Sequence record: NC_047830.1
From: Escherichia phage ST32
DNA: 53,092 nucleotides
Reading direction: 5' to 3' (one strand)
In this document: piece after piece, positions 27,467-41,300 of the stretch
Position numbering within the stretch: the first letter of the stretch is position 1
Layout of the letters: each line of letters opens with the position of its first letter
Program-made: the position numbers and the translations under genes
The notes under the pieces: generated by a model
Seen by the model: only the letters and a program-made list of their open reading frames with translations
Told to the model about the DNA's origin: nothing
Database searches by the model: none

Positions 27467-27652
27467 ATGCGCACAATACAATGTCCTAACTGCCACTATG
27501 AAATTGCAGAAGATGATTTCATAACGCAGCAATGTCCTATCTGTGATTCATACATGCCACTAAACCGCCTGTATTTAAAGGCCGATTCTGGTTTAGGCAG
27601 CATCATTCGCATCAATCCCGTGCAAACTCAGCCATTAGTGGATTGTGATTAA
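27467..27652 (+). CDS. zinc-ribbon protein (CPNCH...CPICD)
   Basis: GGAG RBS; two CxxC pairs. Confidence 0.5.
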   Translation: MRTIQCPNCHYEIAEDDFITQQCPICDSYMPLNRLYLKADSGLGSIIRINPVQTQPLVDCD

Positions 27653-27671
27653 AAACAAAGAGAACGAATCA

Positions 27672-29690
27672 ATGTCAAAGACTGATGACCTCGGACCGGA
27701 GTTTAATGATACAGTAGCCTCGTATCTTGCCAAGCACTACGGTGACGTATTAAAAGTCTCAAGAGAAAGATTCTGTATTCTATCTTTGCCATTGCTCCGT
27801 CGATATATTTCAGAAAATACTGCAATAGTTGACAGCTATGAAGAACAAATTCAAGCAGAGTTAGAAGGCCAGGGTCTTGAAAACGATGCTGTATTGCGTT
27901 CCGTTTTCAGAGCACAACTTGAGCGTCTTCGCTCTGGCGACAAGAAAGACTCGACTGCCTATGCAGATGAGTTGAAGAAAGGTATTCAAGCAGGTGTTAC
28001 TGACCGTGTTGCAGGTTCCACATTGGAGGAGCCAAACTCGGAGTATGATAACACCGATGAACTTGTAGACAAGATTCTGCATGACCCACATAACGTGGAC
28101 CCAACTGTAATCCCTGCCAAGGTTGCAGAACGTGTTCGCAAAATCTTGATGAAAAGTTTCGAAGCCTTTGGTAAATGGCAGTTCCATATCCAAATGGGAT
28201 TTCCATTTCAAGCACAAGACTTTCACGATGTAATATTCAGTGTTGGCCAGAAGGTTGTTGATGGTGAGATTGACCGCTTAATAGTGACCATTCCTCCACG
28301 ACACTCTAAGACTCAGCTCATGAGTATTGCATTACCCTTGTATTCATTTTGCCACAATGAATCAAGCCATAACATTATCACCTCGTATGCAGAAGACGTT
28401 GTTCTTGAATCGAGTGGTTACATTCGTGCTGTAATGATGGACCCACTGTTCCAACGCATATTCCCGAAGGTGAGAATCGACCCTAACAAACGTTCTCTTG
28501 AACGCTGGGGTACAACCAAAGCTGGAGTTATGCACGCAGTACCTACTGGTGGTAAGCTAACTGGTAAAGGTGCTGGACTTCTTGTTGCAAAATACTCCGG
28601 TTGTTTCGTGGTGGATGACGTTATCAAGCCGAAAGATGCCTACTCTGACACAGTTCGAGCAGAAATCAACGACCGATTTGATAACACCTTTATGTCACGT
28701 CTTGCCAACGATGGTTGCATAACTGATTCGTACGGAAACCAAATTAAGTGTGCCCGTACACCAATGGTTATCATCATGCAGCGGGTTCACGACCAGGATT
28801 TAGTTGGTTATATACTCCGTGGTGGCTCTTCTGATAAATACCATTATCTCAATATCCCAGCGATTATTGAGAAAGGTGTTGGAAGTGCTGAATGGTATGA
28901 TAAGTTAATCAAGAAGCAGAACTACACTCATGCTATTCCCATTCTGTATAATTTGAACAGGAAGGAAGAGAAGTCTGCATTATGGCCTTCACGTAAGAGT
29001 TTAGAATCTCTGGAGGCAATGAAAGAGTCTAACCCATACACATACAATTCACAGTATGCTGGCGACCCATCTGCACAAGGCCACGGCCTTATCAAAGAAG
29101 ATTGGTGGCAAGAGTATGAGCCAGACGTTTTCGACAGAAGTCGCATAGTCAGAAGTTTTATTACAGCGGATACGGCATCAACTGCCAAATCCTATTCTGA
29201 TTATTCGGTCCTTAAGCATTGGGGCGTGACTAAAGAGCGTGATGTTTATTGTTTAGATATTATGCTCGGTAAGTTTGAAACTCCAGAACTCAAGACTGCT
29301 ATTATCGACTTCTGGAACAAATGCAACAAGTTGGACTTGAAGTGTGTAGGTTGTATTCCTCGTGCACTGTACATGGAAGACAAGTCTGCCGGACAATTCT
29401 TGAACCAACAATTTATCAGAGATGGGAGTGTCCGAGTTTTACCATTGCCTCGTGATGGGATTAATGGTAATGACAAGGTAACTCGATTCCTTAACGCAAT
29501 CCCATATTTCTCACAAAAGAGAATATTCTTCCCTGCTGGTCATGAACACATCGACCACGTTAGACGTGAAATACTTGGATTCACTTCTTTGGGTAGTGGT
29601 ACTGGACACGACGATTGTGTCGATAACGTTTCAGATATGGTTGCAATCGAATTCTCAGGCCCAAGTGCCAACTACTCCGCATGGATGTAA
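27672..29690 (+). CDS. terminase large subunit
   Basis: about 670 aa; C-terminal nuclease-like GTGHDDCVDNVSD; position before portal; start could be GTG 27645. Confidence 0.7.
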   Translation: MSKTDDLGPEFNDTVASYLAKHYGDVLKVSRERFCILSLPLLRRYISENTAIVDSYEEQIQAELEGQGLENDAVLRSVFRAQLERLRSGDKKDSTAYADELKKGIQAGVTDRVAGSTLEEPNSEYDNTDELVDKILHDPHNVDPTVIPAKVAERVRKILMKSFEAFGKWQFHIQMGFPFQAQDFHDVIFSVGQKVVDGEIDRLIVTIPPRHSKTQLMSIALPLYSFCHNESSHNIITSYAEDVVLESSGYIRAVMMDPLFQRIFPKVRIDPNKRSLERWGTTKAGVMHAVPTGGKLTGKGAGLLVAKYSGCFVVDDVIKPKDAYSDTVRAEINDRFDNTFMSRLANDGCITDSYGNQIKCARTPMVIIMQRVHDQDLVGYILRGGSSDKYHYLNIPAIIEKGVGSAEWYDKLIKKQNYTHAIPILYNLNRKEEKSALWPSRKSLESLEAMKESNPYTYNSQYAGDPSAQGHGLIKEDWWQEYEPDVFDRSRIVRSFITADTASTAKSYSDYSVLKHWGVTKERDVYCLDIMLGKFETPELKTAIIDFWNKCNKLDLKCVGCIPRALYMEDKSAGQFLNQQFIRDGSVRVLPLPRDGINGNDKVTRFLNAIPYFSQKRIFFPAGHEHIDHVRREILGFTSLGSGTGHDDCVDNVSDMVAIEFSGPSANYSAWM

Positions 29691-29905
29691 ATATGGCGGT
29701 TATCACTCGTTTAGATGCCCGCTCACGCAAGAACAACTCCTTCCAGATTCAAGATTTGGAAGGAAACATTTTATGTGTGATTGAGGCAGTTTCTACCACA
29801 GAAAGCGACTGTGTTAAGTTAAAGCACGAGTCAAATCTGCGACTCCACACCTCCGACAACATTCAAATTGTTAAGGGTAATGGAACTATTCTAAGGAAGA
29901 AATAA
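29681..29905 (+). CDS. hypothetical protein
   Basis: ORF overlapping terminase stop. Confidence 0.4.
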   Translation: MDVNMAVITRLDARSRKNNSFQIQDLEGNILCVIEAVSTTESDCVKLKHESNLRLHTSDNIQIVKGNGTILRKK

Positions 29906-31221
29906 TGACTTCCAAGAAGAAAAACAATCTTTCTGTTAAAGTTGCAGATGGGTTAGAAAACCTTGTAACGGGGTTAGGCGGTCAGGCAGATAAGTCCACT
30001 TTCAACCAGTGGACTTTCTCGAATAAGAACGCGAACTATCGCGAACTTATGAACCGCTTCCGTGAGGACTGGGTTGCACAGAAAGTGTGTACCGTCATTC
30101 CTCAGGACATGACGCGTAAGTGGCGACATATTGATAGTGAAGAAGGACGCAAGGCGGATAAGAAACTTCGTATCCGTAAGCTGTTCCGTGAAGCATATCA
30201 ATGGGCCAGATTGTATGGTACTTCATTTGTTCTGCTCGACCTGAAAGGTACGGGCAAACTTGATACACCATTGCGACTGGATAACTTGAAGACTGGATGT
30301 ATTAAATCCATGAGAGTTATTGACCGCTCACGCCTATTTGCCGCAGGAACTATGGTTCTGGACCCTTTGAGTCCTCACTATGGTTTGCCAGAGTACTACA
30401 CTTTGGCTGGATATCCCGGCTATATCCACTACACTCGTTTTCTTCGGTTCGAGGGTACTGAACTGCCGCTGTTCGAATTCCAACGTAACATGTGGTATTC
30501 CGATTCGGTACTTATTCCACTGTTGAAAACGATTGACCAATTCTACACAACTGCTGCTGCTGCTGCCAGCCTTGCACAAGAAGCCACCATTGATGTGGTA
30601 ACTGTTGAAGGCTTACAATCTCTGCTTACATCGCCGGAAGGTGAAGCTGCTGTGATGAAGCGCTTCAAACTTATGAAGCTGGCAAAGAGTATTTATAACG
30701 TCTTAATTCTCGACAATACTGAGAAGTATGACACCAAGTCAATTGCACTATCTGGTGTGAAAGATTTGATTTGGGAATACTTGAAGATAGTTGCTGCCGC
30801 AGTTGGTATTCCGGCTACACGTTTCCTTTCTGCATCTCCAGACGGTATGAATGCTACGGGCGAATCTGACCTCGTAAACTATATCGACTTGTTGACAGGC
30901 TTGCAGACTTCTGTGTTCGACCCTCGTTTAGATGTGGTAGACAAGATTGTCCAGGCGCACTTTGGCATTGAAGAATATAACTACGAATGGTTAGATATCT
31001 TCCCTGAATCCAATGTTGAGAAAGCGAAGCGAGCTAAAGATTTGGCATTCGCTGTTGACCTGTTGGTTAACAATGGCACCATAACTACCGAAGTTGCAAA
31101 CGAAGTCATGTTCCATTCGGGCGTGTTCGGAACTTGTGACCTTGGCAAGCCAAATCCTAATCCTCCTAACATCCAAAAGGGTAACGCAAGTGAAGCAAAA
31201 CCAAAACCTGGTTCAGCTTAA
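29905..31221 (+). CDS. portal protein (by position and size)
   Basis: 438 aa ORF after terminase, AAGGAAG RBS. Confidence 0.55.
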   Translation: MTSKKKNNLSVKVADGLENLVTGLGGQADKSTFNQWTFSNKNANYRELMNRFREDWVAQKVCTVIPQDMTRKWRHIDSEEGRKADKKLRIRKLFREAYQWARLYGTSFVLLDLKGTGKLDTPLRLDNLKTGCIKSMRVIDRSRLFAAGTMVLDPLSPHYGLPEYYTLAGYPGYIHYTRFLRFEGTELPLFEFQRNMWYSDSVLIPLLKTIDQFYTTAAAAASLAQEATIDVVTVEGLQSLLTSPEGEAAVMKRFKLMKLAKSIYNVLILDNTEKYDTKSIALSGVKDLIWEYLKIVAAAVGIPATRFLSASPDGMNATGESDLVNYIDLLTGLQTSVFDPRLDVVDKIVQAHFGIEEYNYEWLDIFPESNVEKAKRAKDLAFAVDLLVNNGTITTEVANEVMFHSGVFGTCDLGKPNPNPPNIQKGNASEAKPKPGSA

Positions 31222-32254
31222 CGACGAAGATACCGTGAATGAAGTAGTTTTGTTGAACGACAAGGCTACTTTAACGACCCGTCGTTTACGTGACTCTGGC
31301 GAAATGATTGCAGAATGCACCATCGCTCGTACTGGCATTATGCTGTACAAAGCGAAAGAACTTGGTGAAATCGCAAAACATCTGGACCCAGAATCTATTT
31401 GCCGTGTTCGTACCAAGCCGGAAGTATTATTTGACGAAGCAACCATCGAAGGCTGTCGTTCAATTCCGGTAACTATCGGCCATCCGAAAAATGATGTTAA
31501 CATCAAGAACAACAAAGAACTCCAGAAAGGGTTCATCGAAGGGCGTCCAGTTGCAGACGGCTCTTTCTTGGCTGCATCAATCGTTTTGAATGACGAGCAA
31601 GCTATTCGATTAGTTGATTCTGGTGTTGACCAAATCTCCTTGGGCCATAATGCCGAACTGGCTGTATCAGAAGATGATGAAGCCGACTTCGATAAAGTCC
31701 GCATTATCCCTAACCATGCTGCAATTGTTGTTCGTGGTCGTGCTCAGACTACTCGCATTGGTGACTCTGGTGAAGAGATTGCCATTGTTGATAAGGCAAC
31801 CTTTGATGTTGTTGAAGCAGAGCGTGATGCAGCGCTTGACAAGATTAATGTCCTTGAACAGAAACTTGCTGATGCAGAAACTGCACGACTATCCGATGAA
31901 GCTATTCAGGCTGAGGTAGACAAACGTGTAGTTGCTCGTACAGCATTGCTTGTTGATGTGGCCCGTCTTGGCGACGAGTTCTCCAACCTCGATTTCTCCG
32001 GCAAGACCGATGCAGAAATTAAGTTGGCTGTAGTTAATAAATTGCATGACAAGGATTTCAGCGATAAGAGCGAAGACTATATCTCCGCCCGTTTCGATGC
32101 AGCTCTTGAAGATTGCGATTCCATTACTTTAGGAGATGCCCTGAATCAGTCTATGCAATTCGCTGCTAAGAAAGATTCAGAAGCTCGTAAACCTAAAGTT
32201 TCTATTTCCGAAGAAGCTAACAAACGTCGTTTAGAACGCTTCAACTCTTTATAA
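31190..32254 (+). CDS. head maturation protease / scaffolding protein (putative)
   Basis: position between portal and capsid genes; C-terminal coiled-coil-like charged region; GTG start 31190 (track 31094 overlaps portal). Confidence 0.45.
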   Translation: MKQNQNLVQLNDEDTVNEVVLLNDKATLTTRRLRDSGEMIAECTIARTGIMLYKAKELGEIAKHLDPESICRVRTKPEVLFDEATIEGCRSIPVTIGHPKNDVNIKNNKELQKGFIEGRPVADGSFLAASIVLNDEQAIRLVDSGVDQISLGHNAELAVSEDDEADFDKVRIIPNHAAIVVRGRAQTTRIGDSGEEIAIVDKATFDVVEAERDAALDKINVLEQKLADAETARLSDEAIQAEVDKRVVARTALLVDVARLGDEFSNLDFSGKTDAEIKLAVVNKLHDKDFSDKSEDYISARFDAALEDCDSITLGDALNQSMQFAAKKDSEARKPKVSISEEANKRRLERFNSL

Positions 32255-32263
32255 GGTAAGACA

Positions 32264-32737
32264 ATGCCAAAGCAAGATTGGTCTATTAATACTGGTGAAG
32301 CATATGCAGGTGAACAATACGGCCTGGCTACCACCAACTCCCAGCGCCTGACTTACGTTGCCGAAGAAGAAATGGCAAACTTTGGTCTGGCCGTTGTTCA
32401 GGGTACGGCATCTAATCAGGTTAAACCTGGTATTGGAGAAGACGGCACTGTTCTGGGCATTACTATGCGCCAGCTTAACATCGAATCTGCTACCCGTCCT
32501 GGCGACGGTACTGTTGCAATCAAAGTTGGCTGGCCTCTGGGTGTTATGCTGTCTGGCCCAATCATGGTCAAACTGAAAACTGCAATCACCGACAAGAACA
32601 TTGGTGTATCCACCAAGGGTGAATTTGGTGGAGTTGGTGCTGGGTATACTAAGGCAACCAACCTGACTGCACTGCGTTATCCAGCTTCCGCTGGCGATGT
32701 TGTTCCGGTCATGATTAACGTAGTCCCAAAGCCGTAA
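32264..32737 (+). CDS. abundant capsid-associated protein (decoration-type), with candidate frameshift extension
   Basis: strong AAGGTAAG RBS; host-like high-expression codons; slippery CCCAAAG 5 nt before stop. Confidence 0.6.
   Translation: MPKQDWSINTGEAYAGEQYGLATTNSQRLTYVAEEEMANFGLAVVQGTASNQVKPGIGEDGTVLGITMRQLNIESATRPGDGTVAIKVGWPLGVMLSGPIMVKLKTAITDKNIGVSTKGEFGGVGAGYTKATNLTALRYPASAGDVVPVMINVVPKP
32725..32731 (+). other. candidate -1 programmed ribosomal frameshift site C_CCA_AAG
   Basis: X_XXY_YYZ heptamer in the zero frame of gene 32264-32737; the -1 frame is open from here to 33030. Confidence 0.5.
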
Positions 32738-32817
32738 CGCCACCTCCGGCTCCTACAGTATCTGCTGTAGCAGGAGTTGTAACTGCTGACGCATCTGTAT
32801 CTGATGCTACTGTAACT

Positions 32818-33030
32818 GTGGACAAGCTGTTTAAGTTTGAGAACTCCACAGCAACAGACTATAACTTCACTGTTACACCTCCCGTGACTGGTGTTTCCGT
32901 GGCGGCAAACGGCACTGTGACTGTCCTGAATGAGACAACCACAGATACTTCTGCGACAATCAAGGCAACAAATAAAACAGCATCTGGCGTAACTGCAACC
33001 AAAGAAATTACCATTACGCCGAAGGCTTAA
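32818..33030 (+). CDS. Ig-like (Thr/Val-rich beta) domain ORF, probably expressed as the -1 frameshift extension of 32264-32737
   Basis: no RBS or ATG; frame open from 32719; TVTPPVTGVSVAANGTVTV..ITITP sequence. Confidence 0.45.
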   Translation: MDKLFKFENSTATDYNFTVTPPVTGVSVAANGTVTVLNETTTDTSATIKATNKTASGVTATKEITITPKA

Positions 33031-33085
33031 GTTGCACTGGCGCAATTAATAGTTGCGCCTCACCAAACAATATGGATTAAATTAC

Positions 33086-34093
33086 ATGCCAAAGATGATT
33101 AAACTGGCGGACGGTTCTGAATTCGAACTGAACGACGCTATCACCCGTATTCAGGATTCTGGCACTGTTGTCCTGAATGACGACGATGCAGTATTCTTTC
33201 AACGCCAGCTTGAGTTCATTGAAGCTCAAACTTATGACACCCTGTATCCAGAACTGGAAGCTCGTGCTGCTTTCGGTGTGGACACTACTGGTGGTGCTGG
33301 CGTAAACACTCTGACCTACCGTTCTTACAACCATGTCGGTAAAGCTCAGGTAATTAACGCCCGTGCAACCGACCTGCCGAAATCCAGCATTTCTGGCAAA
33401 GAATACAGCATCCCTGTTAAATCAGTTGGTACTGCATTCGACTACGATATTGACGAAGTAGCTTCTGCTGCTGTTACTGGCCTCCCGCTGGAAACCCGTA
33501 AAGCAAATGCTGCTATCCGTGGTTACGAACAGTATGTTAACTCTGCTGCATGGTACGGCGATAAGGCTAACGGCTTTGTTGGCTTCTTCGAAAACCCAGA
33601 CATTACCAAAGCAACTGTTGCTGCTGGTACTGGCGGTTCTACTAAGTGGGCCGAGAAGACCCCGACCGAAGTTATTGCCGACCTGACCACTGCTGTGTCT
33701 GCAATGTATGCTTCTACTCTGAAGATTATGCGTCCTGACGAAATCTGGATGCCTGTTGAGCATGAGCAGTACATCTTCAACACTGCACGTTCTGAGCAGT
33801 CTGACAAGACGATTGGTCAGTTCTTCATTGACAACAACCAGTTCATCAACTCCCGCGATAAAATCAAGGGTCTGAACGCAATCAAAGGTCACGGCGATTC
33901 TGGCTCTGACTGCTTCGTTGTTGTTTGCCGCAATGCAATGGGCAACCGTACCTTCCGTCTGCGTGAACCTCTGCCACTGACCTGGCAACCGGTACAGCTT
34001 CATGGTCTGGTTTATGAAGTTCCTGGCCGTGGTCGTTTCGCTGGCTTCCAAGCGATGTATCCGGCAGCAATCTCCATCAACTCCGGCATCTGA
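33086..34093 (+). CDS. major capsid protein
   Basis: about 335 aa, host-like high-expression codon usage, position in head module; start uncertain (TTG 33053 / ATG 33086 / ATG 33095). Confidence 0.7.
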   Translation: MPKMIKLADGSEFELNDAITRIQDSGTVVLNDDDAVFFQRQLEFIEAQTYDTLYPELEARAAFGVDTTGGAGVNTLTYRSYNHVGKAQVINARATDLPKSSISGKEYSIPVKSVGTAFDYDIDEVASAAVTGLPLETRKANAAIRGYEQYVNSAAWYGDKANGFVGFFENPDITKATVAAGTGGSTKWAEKTPTEVIADLTTAVSAMYASTLKIMRPDEIWMPVEHEQYIFNTARSEQSDKTIGQFFIDNNQFINSRDKIKGLNAIKGHGDSGSDCFVVVCRNAMGNRTFRLREPLPLTWQPVQLHGLVYEVPGRGRFAGFQAMYPAAISINSGI

Positions 34094-37764: not shown

Positions 37765-38223
37765 ATGGCTTGTGAATTGCTTCAACGTGAATTCACAAAC
37801 TCCAAAGGCGAAACAGTGTTAGTCGTTGTTCGACAATTGTCGGCTTCGGCTGCACTGTCTCTTCACGCGGAGTTGGTAAGCAAGTTAGGCTCACGAGTAT
37901 TTCCATTCATCGAAGGTAAATATAACTTCGCTGATATTATATACTTGATGCAGCAAGTAGAGCATACCGTATTCACAGAATTGTTTAAGCGTGTTATCAG
38001 CATGCACTCGTCCATAGACGGACAAGAAATCAAACCTGCATTATATGATATGCAGTTCAATGGCGAATTGATGTTGTCTTGCCATGTCTTTGCTTTCGTG
38101 CTCGAAGCAAACTTCCTTGATTTTTTCAAGCAAGGGCTCGAAATCAACGAACAGAGACGATTGGAGGCGGAGGAAGCATCCAAGCTGGCAGAGCAGAAGA
38201 ATTCGAGTCCGGAGACAGTTTAG
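37765..38223 (+). CDS. tail assembly chaperone
   Basis: position between tube and tape measure; overlapping ORF in another frame; T6 slippery run. Confidence 0.6.
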   Translation: MACELLQREFTNSKGETVLVVVRQLSASAALSLHAELVSKLGSRVFPFIEGKYNFADIIYLMQQVEHTVFTELFKRVISMHSSIDGQEIKPALYDMQFNGELMLSCHVFAFVLEANFLDFFKQGLEINEQRRLEAEEASKLAEQKNSSPETV

Positions 38224-38299
38224 TATCCCTGTTCCCCGACATAAAATATTTTCTGCATCGTCCTATAATCGAAGACAGTTCTCTCTGCAAGTTACGTGA
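38084..38299 (+). CDS. tail assembly chaperone frameshift extension (expressed as fusion via +1/-2 shift at 38121-38126)
   Basis: ORF in +1 frame relative to 37765-38223, no RBS at its ATG, extends 76 nt beyond the chaperone stop. Confidence 0.4.
   Translation: MSLLSCSKQTSLIFSSKGSKSTNRDDWRRRKHPSWQSRRIRVRRQFSIPVPRHKIFSASSYNRRQFSLQVT
38121..38126 (+). other. candidate programmed frameshift site (TTTTTT followed by C) in tail chaperone gene
   Basis: homopolymeric T6 run inside the 140-nt two-frame overlap. Confidence 0.45.
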
Positions 38300-38382
38300 A
38301 TTGCAAGATGGAACCTATTCGATTATGGACTTATTGCTATTCCACGACATTCTCGATTTGCGTAAGAAACTCGAACCAGTAG

Positions 38383-41300
38383 ATGAAGACAATGGCTAAT
38401 CAAAAAGATTTAATGAAGTTGAGCGTTAATGAGTTAATTGCATTAGGCTCTCAAAGCGGTCTGACTTTCCATGCTGGTATGAAGAAGTCGCACATGGTTC
38501 AACAACTTAGTGCGAGCGCTGCTTCGGGATGGCTGGATACAAATGCAGAATTAATGGGTGGGTCGTTTGAAGATGACAGTTTAATTACTGAATCTTTGGG
38601 CGACTCTTCCATGATTTCAGACGCTGCCCACATTGCACAAGTGCTTTCAAGTGCTGGCTACACAGAAGCATTTCATGCAGCAATGAATGGCCCAACACAC
38701 CATGTAGAAGCTGTTCACGCATACATGGAAAGGCTTGGCGTCAACACAGATGATGTGTGGATGCACATGCCAAAGCCAAATCCGAACTTACCGCAAGGTA
38801 GCTTCAACATGCTTAATGCCTATATGCGAGATACTTTGCAAGGGCATCAAGATATTATGCCAGAAATCCCAGGCCACTATGCTGGGGATATTATGGCTGA
38901 ATACTCCACCAACCGTGGAAACATTGCCGACTCATACAACTACATGGCTCACATGTATGTTGACCGTGAGCAGTACAGCAATCATGAACAATACGCAAGA
39001 GACATTAGTCGAGTTGCCAAACGTCTGGAACAAGAGTTACCCGCAGCCTTTAAGGAAGTTGGGTATACCTCGGCCTCTAATGTAGGAAATAAATCGGCCC
39101 CACATATTTCTTACATGGATGCACTTCCTCAGATTGGCTCTCATTCAATTGTTTCTGGCATTGCACATCCTCGTGCGCCTCTTAACGCATCTGGACTTCC
39201 TCTTGGTTCATATGGTTCTGGCATAAATCCAGAATACTCCCTCACTGCATCATTAACTGGTGGCACAGGTTGGAGCGAACCAAGCAAGGCTTTATATTCC
39301 TCTATTAGTGAAGCTGTTAAATCTGCTGCCAAAGTTTATTCTGGCTCCAAAGGGATGATGAATACTCGTCACGAAGTATCTGACCGTGACATGATTATGG
39401 ACAGCGCAACTCGCTATACAGATTTGGAAGAAGCCAGAAGCGGGTATGAAAACCTTCGTTCTGAACTTGCAGATGAACCAGCTTATTCTGCATCGAGTGT
39501 TCGAGCTATTCTCGAAAACACTTACGACAAAATGGATGCCGAACCTGTTCGCATTCCAAAGATGAAGGGAGCTTCACAGCGAATCGAAAAAGATTCGCAA
39601 CCAACATCTACAGAATTTACAGCACAACTTGGAGAGGCCACCAATTGGAACTCTGCAAGAATGCGTCGTGAGGAAATTGCGATTGCAAATATGGATAGTG
39701 CTGGATTCCGTGATGTATCAGACTATGGCACAGGACGTTCCGAGTCTCCCGTCAGATTCCACGACTTAGAACAGGGTAGCCAAGAGTGGTTAGACTTCCG
39801 TAAAAATTATGACATAACTGGCTCAACTGTTGGAACTTTCTTAGGAAACAACCCGTACACCCGACCTTGGGCGGGAATGATTGACAAGATTGGTCTATCT
39901 CGTAGTAAAGAGCACAGCGATTTCACCAAGAAGATGTTCGCTGATGGTCACAGGACGGAAGAAGAAGCACGCGCTCGTGTTGGTAAGGAATTTGGATTCG
40001 ATATCAAACAAACTGGCGCTATAACAAATGACAACTATCCCGCCTTCATGTATTCTCCTGATGGTCTTATTGGCGATGATGCCATTTGGGAGCATAAGAA
40101 TCCGCAAAGGGCTGGTAAGTTTGCTGACCTTCTTAAAGGCGACCATCCAGATTACATGGACCAAATTCAATTTGGTATGCACGTTTCTGGCCGTTCTCGT
40201 GCTTTGTTCTCACAAACCATCAACGACGAAACACGTTCGCAATGGATTGAGAAGGACGAAGGATGGTACGAGAGAAACCGAAATCGCCTTGATTCTGTGC
40301 TTGGCCGCCTTGATGCTGGGCGAGAGTTTGTTAGAAACAATGCTGGACTAGACCGAGAAGAACTGATTGCTGGTGCAAGAAGTGCAATGACTGGTGACGG
40401 AATCTGGAAGGATATTCGTCAAAGGTCAACTCGTGGCTATTCTGCCGTTGCTGGAACTCCAGAAGACCCATTCATTGGTTCACGTTCTTCATACAATCCA
40501 ACGGCATCTTACTCAGACTACCAGCCAAACTTTGTAATGCACGAGCAAAACTTTCCAGCAACCACAGGAAATGGGGATACTGGAAACGACTCGATGGCAT
40601 TGTCTGTTAAGAAAGGTATCCTTGCTGCTCAGGAAGAAAACAGGCAGAAGGGTATCGGTGCAGATGCAGACTTTAACGGCAAAGCCGATTCAATGGGTTG
40701 GGACCGCGAAAGATTTGATGCTGCCAATGGCGGTGGATATTCTGGCGGTGGCGGTGGTCGTGGCGGTAACTTCACAAGTGGTGGCAACTACTATGATGAC
40801 TACGGTCGCATGGGTGGTTCACTAGCTGCTGGTATTGCTGGTGGCAGTATTGGTTCAGCAACCAACGGAGTTATGCAAGCATTGATGGCAACTCCTGCCG
40901 GACGTATGGCTGCTGTGGGCATTGGTGCTATTCAGATTGGCAATGAAGCTGCTGAATACATGAATGACTTTATCGGCAATTCGCTTGATGCTGGTGTGAT
41001 AAATCCTAATGAATACTCTTCTATGTCGCAAGGCTTGGAGATGTTAGGACTAAACTCCCAACAAGCGGCACGTCTGAATCAAACCGCACATAGTGCCTAC
41101 AACACCATGCTTAACGGCGACCCCAGCGCCGCTGTGAACATCGTTCGCGGCAGTAGGGGATTGCTCACCATAGGTGATATTCGTGCGACAGGCGGCGACC
41201 CTGTGGCCCTGGCTCGCATCATGCAGGAAAGGGGCAAGGAGCGTGGCTGGAGTCAGGCCCGTATCGCAGGTGCTGCCGAAATGGCTGGCCTGAATGGGAT

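Follow-up and report, generated by a model that had tools for sequence, protein, structure and literature searches.

A candidate -1 frameshift site that would append exchangeable Ig-like domains to a phage capsid cement protein

The addition of immunoglobulin (Ig)-like domains to phage structural proteins by -1 frameshifting has been described for phages T3, A2, and A118/A500, and these domains are seen as mobile modules, some of which insert out of frame (PMC5009743). Here, we consider a candidate for the same arrangement in Escherichia phage ST32 (NC_047830.1), of which a stretch of 53,092 nucleotides, one strand read 5' to 3', was analysed (the window). The gene in question, encoding the capsid cement (decoration) protein, carries the slippery heptamer C_CCA_AAG close to its stop codon, and the -1 frame behind it is predicted to encode a proline-rich linker and one Ig-like domain. 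An earlier note, made from the sequence, had proposed this frameshift and had pointed to frameshift-extended head proteins in other phages as precedent, which the literature bears out (PMC5009743).

As in T3 (10A/10B), A2 (gp5A/5B), and A118/A500, the slip would occur near the 3' end of a head gene and give rise to a minor, Ig-extended form. The A2 site is C_CCA_AAA, a variant also present in one relative of ST32 (L033). In contrast to T3, A2, and A118, where the major capsid protein is the carrier, the ST32 domain would be borne by a trimeric beta-tulip cement protein; moreover, the ST32 site has no evident stimulatory structure, and non-homologous cassettes lie behind one subfamily-wide site. 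The lambda G/GT frameshift (G_GGA_AAG) likewise employs an X_XXA_AAG motif near the end of the upstream open reading frame (ORF), where a low-level -1 shift fixes the proportion of short to long product at about 30:1 (PMC5009743), and is conserved across phages despite divergence. The lambda products, however, are assembly chaperones that are not found in virions, whereas both ST32 products are predicted to be structural, with the extension as a display domain. Surface-exposed Ig-like modules likewise occur on phage structural proteins in T4 Hoc, the C-terminal domain of T5 pb6, and the BIG2 domain of phi29 gp8; there, the domain is in frame on every subunit, while the ST32 frameshift would limit it to a minority of cement subunits.

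From the comparisons set out below, we consider it highly probable that ST32 makes a -1 frameshift fusion of its cement protein with an Ig-like domain. Most ribosomes would stop at the zero-frame TAA and release the 157-amino acid cement protein, and a minority would slip back one base on C_CCA_AAG, with tRNA-Pro re-pairing from CCA to CCC and tRNA-Lys from AAG to AAA. These ribosomes would read the -1 frame to position 33030, yielding 255 amino acids that comprise the cement protein, the linker AVTPPPAPTVSAVAG, and one Ig-like domain. This longer protein would then co-assemble into cement trimers, resulting in sub-stoichiometric, outward-facing Ig-like modules on each capsid, whose likely role would be to adhere weakly to surface glycans, a function also suggested for the Ig-like domains of other phages. 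Applying the lambda G/GT ratio to a T=7 capsid with 420 cement copies, as in Pam3 (PMC9942802), we arrive at an expected number of a few to some tens of Ig domains on each head. We infer the occurrence of the slip, its efficiency, the presence of the long form in virions, and the function of the domain. Within the subfamily Cleopatravirinae, the slip site would serve as a fixed port behind which Ig-type cassettes are swapped, duplicated, or lost. What appears to be new, judging from the loci compared, is the beta-tulip cement carrier, the subfamily-wide site with swappable cassettes, the natural variants of that site, and the fact that annotation has not recognised it.

Phasing and conservation of the slip site

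The cement ORF ends in GTC CCA AAG CCG TAA, placing C_CCA_AAG in the zero frame as an X_XXY_YYZ motif, just as the earlier note had read it. The -1 frame proposed there was also found: it follows a TAA at 32716-32718 and stays open from 32719 to the TAA at 33028-33030, 293 nt beyond the zero-frame stop, with the translation RSPKAVTPPPAPTVSAV...ITITPKA. The predicted fusion computes to 255 amino acids and 26.1 kDa, compared to 157 amino acids and 16.4 kDa for the normal product, and thus corrects the initial estimate of roughly 256 amino acids. The heptamer with its AAG lysine codon had further been called shift-prone in bacteria, and C_CCA_AAG is indeed one of the three heptamers that shift most readily in E. 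coli (PMC4066793, PMC5009743); in combination with the IS3 pseudoknot, it supports -1 shifting of up to 54% (PMC4066793).

Searching with the complete fusion by tblastn returned 107 phage records, 53 of which contained both halves, always in two different frames (53/53). The comparison covered 42 distinct loci, drawn from GenBank phages, IMG/VR, and metagenome assemblies; an IMG/VR scan with a single protein retrieved only four near-identical loci, and IMG/VR was therefore scanned with an alignment. A perfect in-frame heptamer was present at 26 loci with a -1 extension and at none without one, an A_AAR motif only at four loci with and one without an extension, and no site at all at 11 loci, none of which carries an extension. 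At the single A_AAR locus without extension, the motif is an imperfect A_AAA located six codons away from the stop. Among the perfect heptamers, 24 are C_CCA_AAG, and one each is C_CCA_AAA (L033) and G_GGA_AAA (L039). At each of the 30 extension-bearing loci, an A_AAR lysine slip site lies in frame 0-5 codons ahead of the stop, and at 28 of them the distance is 0 or 1 codon. The -1 extensions behind perfect heptamers span 146-665 nt and each stops just short of the capsid gene, which at loci lacking an extension lies 15-90 nt further on. An earlier subset of the loci (24/0/1/11) gave a Fisher p of 2e-8, uncorrected for phylogeny. The Nefertitivirinae relatives Spp001, pAh6-C, and VPs20 have neither site nor extension.

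At the nucleotide level, the heptamer codons CCA and AAG are fixed, compared to 141 of 155 variable third positions in the cement gene. The codon supplying the first C is GTC, CTC, ATC, GGC, GCC, or TCC; given that it is NNC throughout despite encoding six different amino acids (V, L, I, G, A, and S), the heptamer is selected as a nucleotide sequence rather than for its residues. The natural variants C_CCA_AAA and G_GGA_AAA keep the slippery pattern as well. This phasing also bears on the question whether the long product could instead arise by transcriptional slippage. An RNA polymerase dropping one base would yield the identical -1 frame fusion, and phages of this group encode a T7-like RNA polymerase of their own (PMC12842549). 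Yet, what is conserved follows the codon phase (X_XXY_YYZ with an AAG lysine codon), a property specific to tRNA re-pairing, and the homopolymer runs at the site comprise only C3-4 and A3. Characterised transcriptional slippage needs runs of about seven or more, and we give a transcriptional origin of the fusion next to no credence.

One locus with a diverged cement protein (40% identical; L039, an IMG/VR contig) has its G_GGA_AAA five codons before the stop, followed by a 311-nt -1 ORF for another beta-rich domain. This arrangement could reflect either ancient retention or an independent origin.

The earlier note had also described a hairpin beginning about 18 nt downstream. A hairpin with a 7-bp core exists, starting 18-21 nt after the heptamer in ST32 and 18-22 nt after it where it recurs, but its role as a stimulator of the shift did not hold up. 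The usual spacing is 5-9 nt, the RNAfold energy is weak (z = -1.36), and the hairpin is missing from Loessnervirus, PM1, and Orgeat, which retain the slip site. Folding the hairpin in 18 relatives and as an alignment gave a consensus energy of -5.09 kcal/mol with a covariation term that was not favourable; 83.5% of cells were paired vs 77.5% in shuffles, a marginal excess reached by 17 of 500 shuffles, with 15 of 500 as the second figure. We therefore rejected the hairpin as a conserved stimulator. We also rejected it as a terminator accompanied by an internal promoter, as annotated in phage SA91KD, given that it has no T-tract and that the scan flags neither element. Overlap of the hairpin with the conserved PTVSAV coding sequence may account for its persistence in close relatives. 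To our knowledge, some bacterial and phage -1 sites, such as lambda G/GT, have no known stimulator. 'Shifty stop' effects have been described, and the proximity of the stop codon may contribute to the shift.

Several observations weigh against the frameshift fusion. A canonical stimulator was not found, neither a Shine-Dalgarno-like sequence upstream nor a structure 5-9 nt downstream of the heptamer. E. coli heptamers without a stimulator shift at 2-10 times a background of about 0.05% (PMC4066793), so that the fusion may be made only very rarely. Since the loci share a phylogeny, the co-occurrence counts overstate their independence. CCCAAAG as such occurs at chance level on the two strands of the window (5 observed vs 6.8 expected). 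In one clade, comprising Myduc (L017/L038), L049, L050, and L051, the Ig-type extension lies behind an imperfect N_NNA_AAG motif (G_GCA_AAG, G_TTA_AAG, G_GTA_AAG, or A_GTA_AAG), at a distance of 0-1 codon from the stop. The P-site tRNA would re-pair poorly at these four sites, and either A-site tRNA-Lys slippage suffices there or an unrecognised element contributes. Finally, our literature search on Chaseviridae phages yielded neither virion proteomics nor a capsid structure. What does lie above chance, by the comparison of loci, is the combination of the heptamer's frame, its stop-adjacent position, and its conservation together with the -1 ORF in diverged relatives.

The two halves of the predicted fusion

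That the carrier is capsid-associated, as the earlier note had assumed, is corroborated by its match to the Pfam family Phage_cement (PF22758; 64.3 bits at a cutoff of 27, E = 1.8e-17), which covers profile positions 4-146 of 146, and by its place in PHROG 563 (head and packaging). Given that a PDB sequence search with the cement protein as query returned no match, we compared folds instead. The two halves of the fusion were modelled separately. The AlphaFold2 (AF2) model of the cement protein, built from 38 homologues, has a predicted local distance difference test (pLDDT) score of 84.5, and its N-terminal 30 residues are extended and of low confidence. Foldseek matched the model to Pam3 gp6 (8hdt_G; E = 7.6e-6, template modelling (TM) score 0.62) and the T1 decoration protein (9kzj_I; E = 9.3e-6), with further matches to the minor capsid proteins of HFTV1, FCWL1, and XM1 and to the base of the phi29 head fibre (gp8.5). 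By profile and model, the gene thus encodes a capsid cement protein of the beta-tulip fold.

Pam3 gp6 and E217 gp24 share the Pfam family, the fold, and the gene position with the ST32 protein. In Pam3, 140 gp6 trimers occupy the threefold and quasi-threefold axes of the head, anchored via an N-terminal loop (PMC9942802); the extended, low-confidence N-terminus of the ST32 model is comparable, and by homology the ST32 protein would be trimeric and sit at the equivalent axes. The decoration proteins of T1, XM1, and HFTV1 and the base of phi29 gp8.5 have a related fold. phi29 gp8.5 runs in frame into its fibre, whereas the ST32 cement extension lies in the -1 frame. For none of the structurally characterised cement relatives (Pam3, E217, T1, XM1, HFTV1, and phi29 gp8.5) did we find a frameshift extension reported in the literature.

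The extension was modelled by AF2 as an all-beta structure of nine strands, with a pLDDT of 91.7 for the best model and 60-73 for the remaining four. Its leading Foldseek matches are the Ig-like domain of the T5 tail tube protein pb6 (E = 1.5e-4, TM score 0.63) and phi29 gp8, followed by invasin, Sidekick, and cadherin domains. Pfam models, including Big_2, I-set, Ig_3, and FN3, gave nothing above cutoff on the ST32 extension; in PHROG, it matches family 13745, 'Ig domain containing protein' (E = 8.3e-7). The Ig-like character claimed for the extension is therefore borne out, and we regard it as a proline-rich linker plus an Ig-like domain that is confidently modelled. A profile search with this domain among 1.84 billion representative proteins gave 20 hits. 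The family also occurs in frame on the tail tube protein P0108, beside a Big_2 domain, and in multi-repeat proteins, including 33 stretches of one 5,070-amino acid protein, as is typical of a promiscuous Ig-like module.

Selection on the extension can be followed through its codons. Across 13 phages with a homologous domain (99 codons), 45, 38, and 96 codons vary at positions 1, 2, and 3 of the -1 frame, the synonymous share of differing codons is 0.63 vs 0.11 and 0.04 in the other frames, and the alignment contains no stops vs 118 and 78 in the others. The linker behaves in the same way: over the 15 codons after the heptamer in 11 relatives, variable sites number 4, 5, and 12 at positions 1, 2, and 3, and pairwise codon differences comprise 223 synonymous and 138 nonsynonymous changes. 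These patterns indicate that the extension is under strong purifying selection in the -1 frame only, from the shift site on and with the linker included.

Current annotation treats the extension differently. In all 22 GenBank/RefSeq regions examined, it is either omitted or called as a separate small gene with an arbitrary start, and the frameshift is recognised in none of these regions nor in any paper that we found. The records contain separate coding sequences of 43-164 amino acids ('Ig protein' or 'hypothetical protein'), SA91KD annotators placed a promoter and a terminator around the ORF, and ST32 has a GTG at 32818, all of which would fit an independent small gene translated from its own GTG or TTG start or by termination-reinitiation after the cement stop. 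However, the annotated starts differ almost genome by genome (at least seven different ones, or none), no start is conserved or preceded by a Shine-Dalgarno sequence, and the linker sits upstream of almost every one of them. The earlier note had stated that the extension has no ribosome-binding site or ATG of its own, and we found none in ST32 or its relatives: the -1 frame of ST32 lacks an ATG, and the first 45 codons of the extension contain no ATG in any relative and no candidate start with a Shine-Dalgarno sequence. Four relatives (flopper, phiA050, 4HA13, and Fifi44) have no ATG, GTG, or TTG at all within these codons. In ST32, the GTG at 32818, the first possible start, is not preceded by a Shine-Dalgarno sequence and lies inside the domain, and initiation there would remove the first strands of the modelled structure. 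In addition, our scan for promoter-like or terminator-like sites between 32737 and 33086 found none, in contrast to the SA91KD annotation. Coding selection and the conserved PPPAP linker reach the heptamer itself, phage flopper duplicates the linker together with the domain, and an independent gene would leave the conservation of the heptamer at synonymous sites unexplained. We therefore judge independent expression very unlikely.

Exchange of cassettes behind the site

The arrangement of site plus extension is found in at least six genera with differing cassettes. Phage flopper (L002, 2330-2913) carries a 282-nt tandem duplicate of linker and Ig-like module in the same frame, giving a predicted two-domain extension whose copies differ mostly at synonymous sites; its long form would measure about 36 kDa. 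SA91KD (L054) also contains a tandem duplicate of linker and domain in the same frame, and judging from match length, JL1 and DE15 do likewise. In PM1, Fifi44, Orgeat, L026, L030, Myduc, L049-L051, and L053, unrelated or other Ig-type modules follow the slip site of the cement gene; the Orgeat-type and Myduc-type cassettes have Ig_3 and ig matches below cutoff, and for the gene called on L050, Ig_2/Ig_3 hits are recorded. The metagenomic locus L053 (1416-2063) has C_CCA_AAG followed by a 221-amino acid -1 extension without a Pfam match, and this predicted product shows the site to be able to carry a bigger cargo.

A comparison of Y2 and Orgeat, two phages assigned to the same species, delimits one such exchange: the two are 73-100% identical as far as the heptamer, drop to 33-57% between about +20 and +350, and are 100% identical again from the capsid gene onwards. 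The Yersinia phage PYps3T (L014, 1456-1620) and PYps4T, in turn, keep the heptamer and have an internally deleted extension of 54 amino acids, a loss variant which suggests that the Ig module is dispensable. Taken together, the Y2/Orgeat swap and the decay in PYps3T indicate that the module is exchangeable and dispensable while the port persists.

Loss of this kind also raises the possibility that the ST32 extension is in decay, or a passenger that is not expressed: an Ig cassette once in frame would have been displaced by a 1-nt indel, with the heptamer being incidental. The low efficiency expected without a stimulator is compatible with such a scenario, as are the truncated extensions of PYps3T and PYps4T, which document that the module can be lost. 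A remnant, however, would hardly retain 96 of 99 variable third positions vs 38-45 at positions 1 and 2, with zero stops in 13 diverged genomes, nor would the arrangement be kept in at least six genera with different cassettes and the heptamer co-occur so tightly with the extension. An in-frame fusion was not detected: in a collection of 5.8 billion proteins, none of 86 cement-protein clusters is an in-frame cement-Ig fusion, given that all measure 145-177 amino acids and no cluster exceeds 177, and none was seen in the 12 extension clusters or among the 20 hits of the representative-library profile search. Decay thus appears highly improbable as an explanation.

While the frameshift fusion in ST32 is well supported by these comparisons, a broader generalisation can be offered only tentatively. 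The stop-adjacent A_AAG might constitute a 'display port', in which a fixed recoding signal sets a low level of display per capsid and unrelated Ig-type cassettes are recombined, duplicated, and discarded behind it; we consider this somewhat doubtful. Given that one clade has only N_NNA_AAG beside the stop and no visible structure, the shift may need a stimulator that has not been described, for which the neighbouring stop codon or the nascent peptide at the C-terminus would be candidates. If true, cement trimers would serve these phages as a phage-display system that is both natural and tunable.

Once the frameshift is recognised, annotation would be corrected throughout a phage subfamily in which more than 50 genomes carry this domain type. 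Ig domains appended by frameshifting, described for major capsid and tail proteins, would also be known from trimeric beta-tulip cement proteins. The natural variant series (C_CCA_AAG, C_CCA_AAA, G_GGA_AAA, and the four N_NNA_AAG sites) would be useful for studying bacterial -1 sites without an obvious stimulator. Several phages of the group have been considered for biocontrol or therapy against E. coli, Erwinia, Pectobacterium, and Yersinia, and an exchangeable surface domain in low copy number is relevant to both adhesion and immunogenicity. The slip site could also provide a ready-made place for engineered capsid display without disturbing assembly.

One record with 90% DNA identity to this Escherichia/Yersinia phage group, PP952070 (L006), is named 'Staphylococcus phage Pel53' and labelled as a Staphylococcus hyicus phage. 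Its host label looks doubtful.

Features of the ST32 locus

By sequence similarity, the ST32 stretch belongs to a phiEcoM-GJ1-like coliphage of the family Chaseviridae, subfamily Cleopatravirinae, genus Carltongylesvirus, and the closest match to the locus is phage TH53 (97.5% over 1.5 kb). The features of the head module and of the predicted fusion are listed in Table 1.

Table 1. Features of the cement gene region in the ST32 window, with peptides predicted for the fusion
Feature	Position	Strand	Remarks
Large terminase gene	27645-29690		Head module, first in order
Portal gene	29905-31221		PF06381
DUF2213 protease/scaffold gene	ends at 32254		Directly before cement gene
Capsid cement (decoration) protein gene	32264-32737	+	Zero-frame product 157 amino acids, 16.4 kDa; between DUF2213 and major capsid genes
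Slippery heptamer C_CCA_AAG	32725-32731	+	Zero frame; predicted -1 shift site
Zero-frame stop TAA of cement gene	32735-32737	+	One codon past heptamer
Proline-rich linker AVTPPPAPTVSAVAG	32731-32775	+	First part of predicted -1 extension; translation
Hairpin	32750-32776	+	7-bp core, 32753-32759 with 32764-32770; extended form CTCC...GGAG
Ig-like domain of predicted -1 extension	32776-33030	+	About 84 amino acids; stop TAA 33028-33030; model, Foldseek, PHROG
Major capsid protein gene	33086-34093	+	PF09950, E = 2.2e-48; downstream border of exchangeable cassette
Predicted peptides of the 255-amino acid fusion			Tryptic: AVTPPPAPTVSAVAGVVTADASVSDATVTVDK; AspN, junction-spanning: DVVPVMINVVPKAVTPPPAPTVSAVAGVVTA

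Two further elements of the window were noted. Between the extension stop and the ribosome-binding site of the major capsid gene lies a 9-bp hairpin (GGCGCAAUU/AGUUGCGCC) at 33039-33059 (+), which is kept in flopper. The equivalent region is annotated as a rho-independent terminator in SA91KD; in ST32, it has no T-tract and is not flagged by the terminator scan. This hairpin may be a terminator for the phage polymerase, or an element of RNA processing or stability.

Further downstream, a second slip-type site, T_TTT_TTC at 38121, lies in the zero frame of an ORF at 37765-38223 (+) between the tail tube and tape measure genes. The -1 frame at this site is open for 92 codons (window 38121-38398) and reaches the start of the tape measure gene, an arrangement that, by its layout, looks like the canonical tail assembly chaperone frameshift of the G/GT type.

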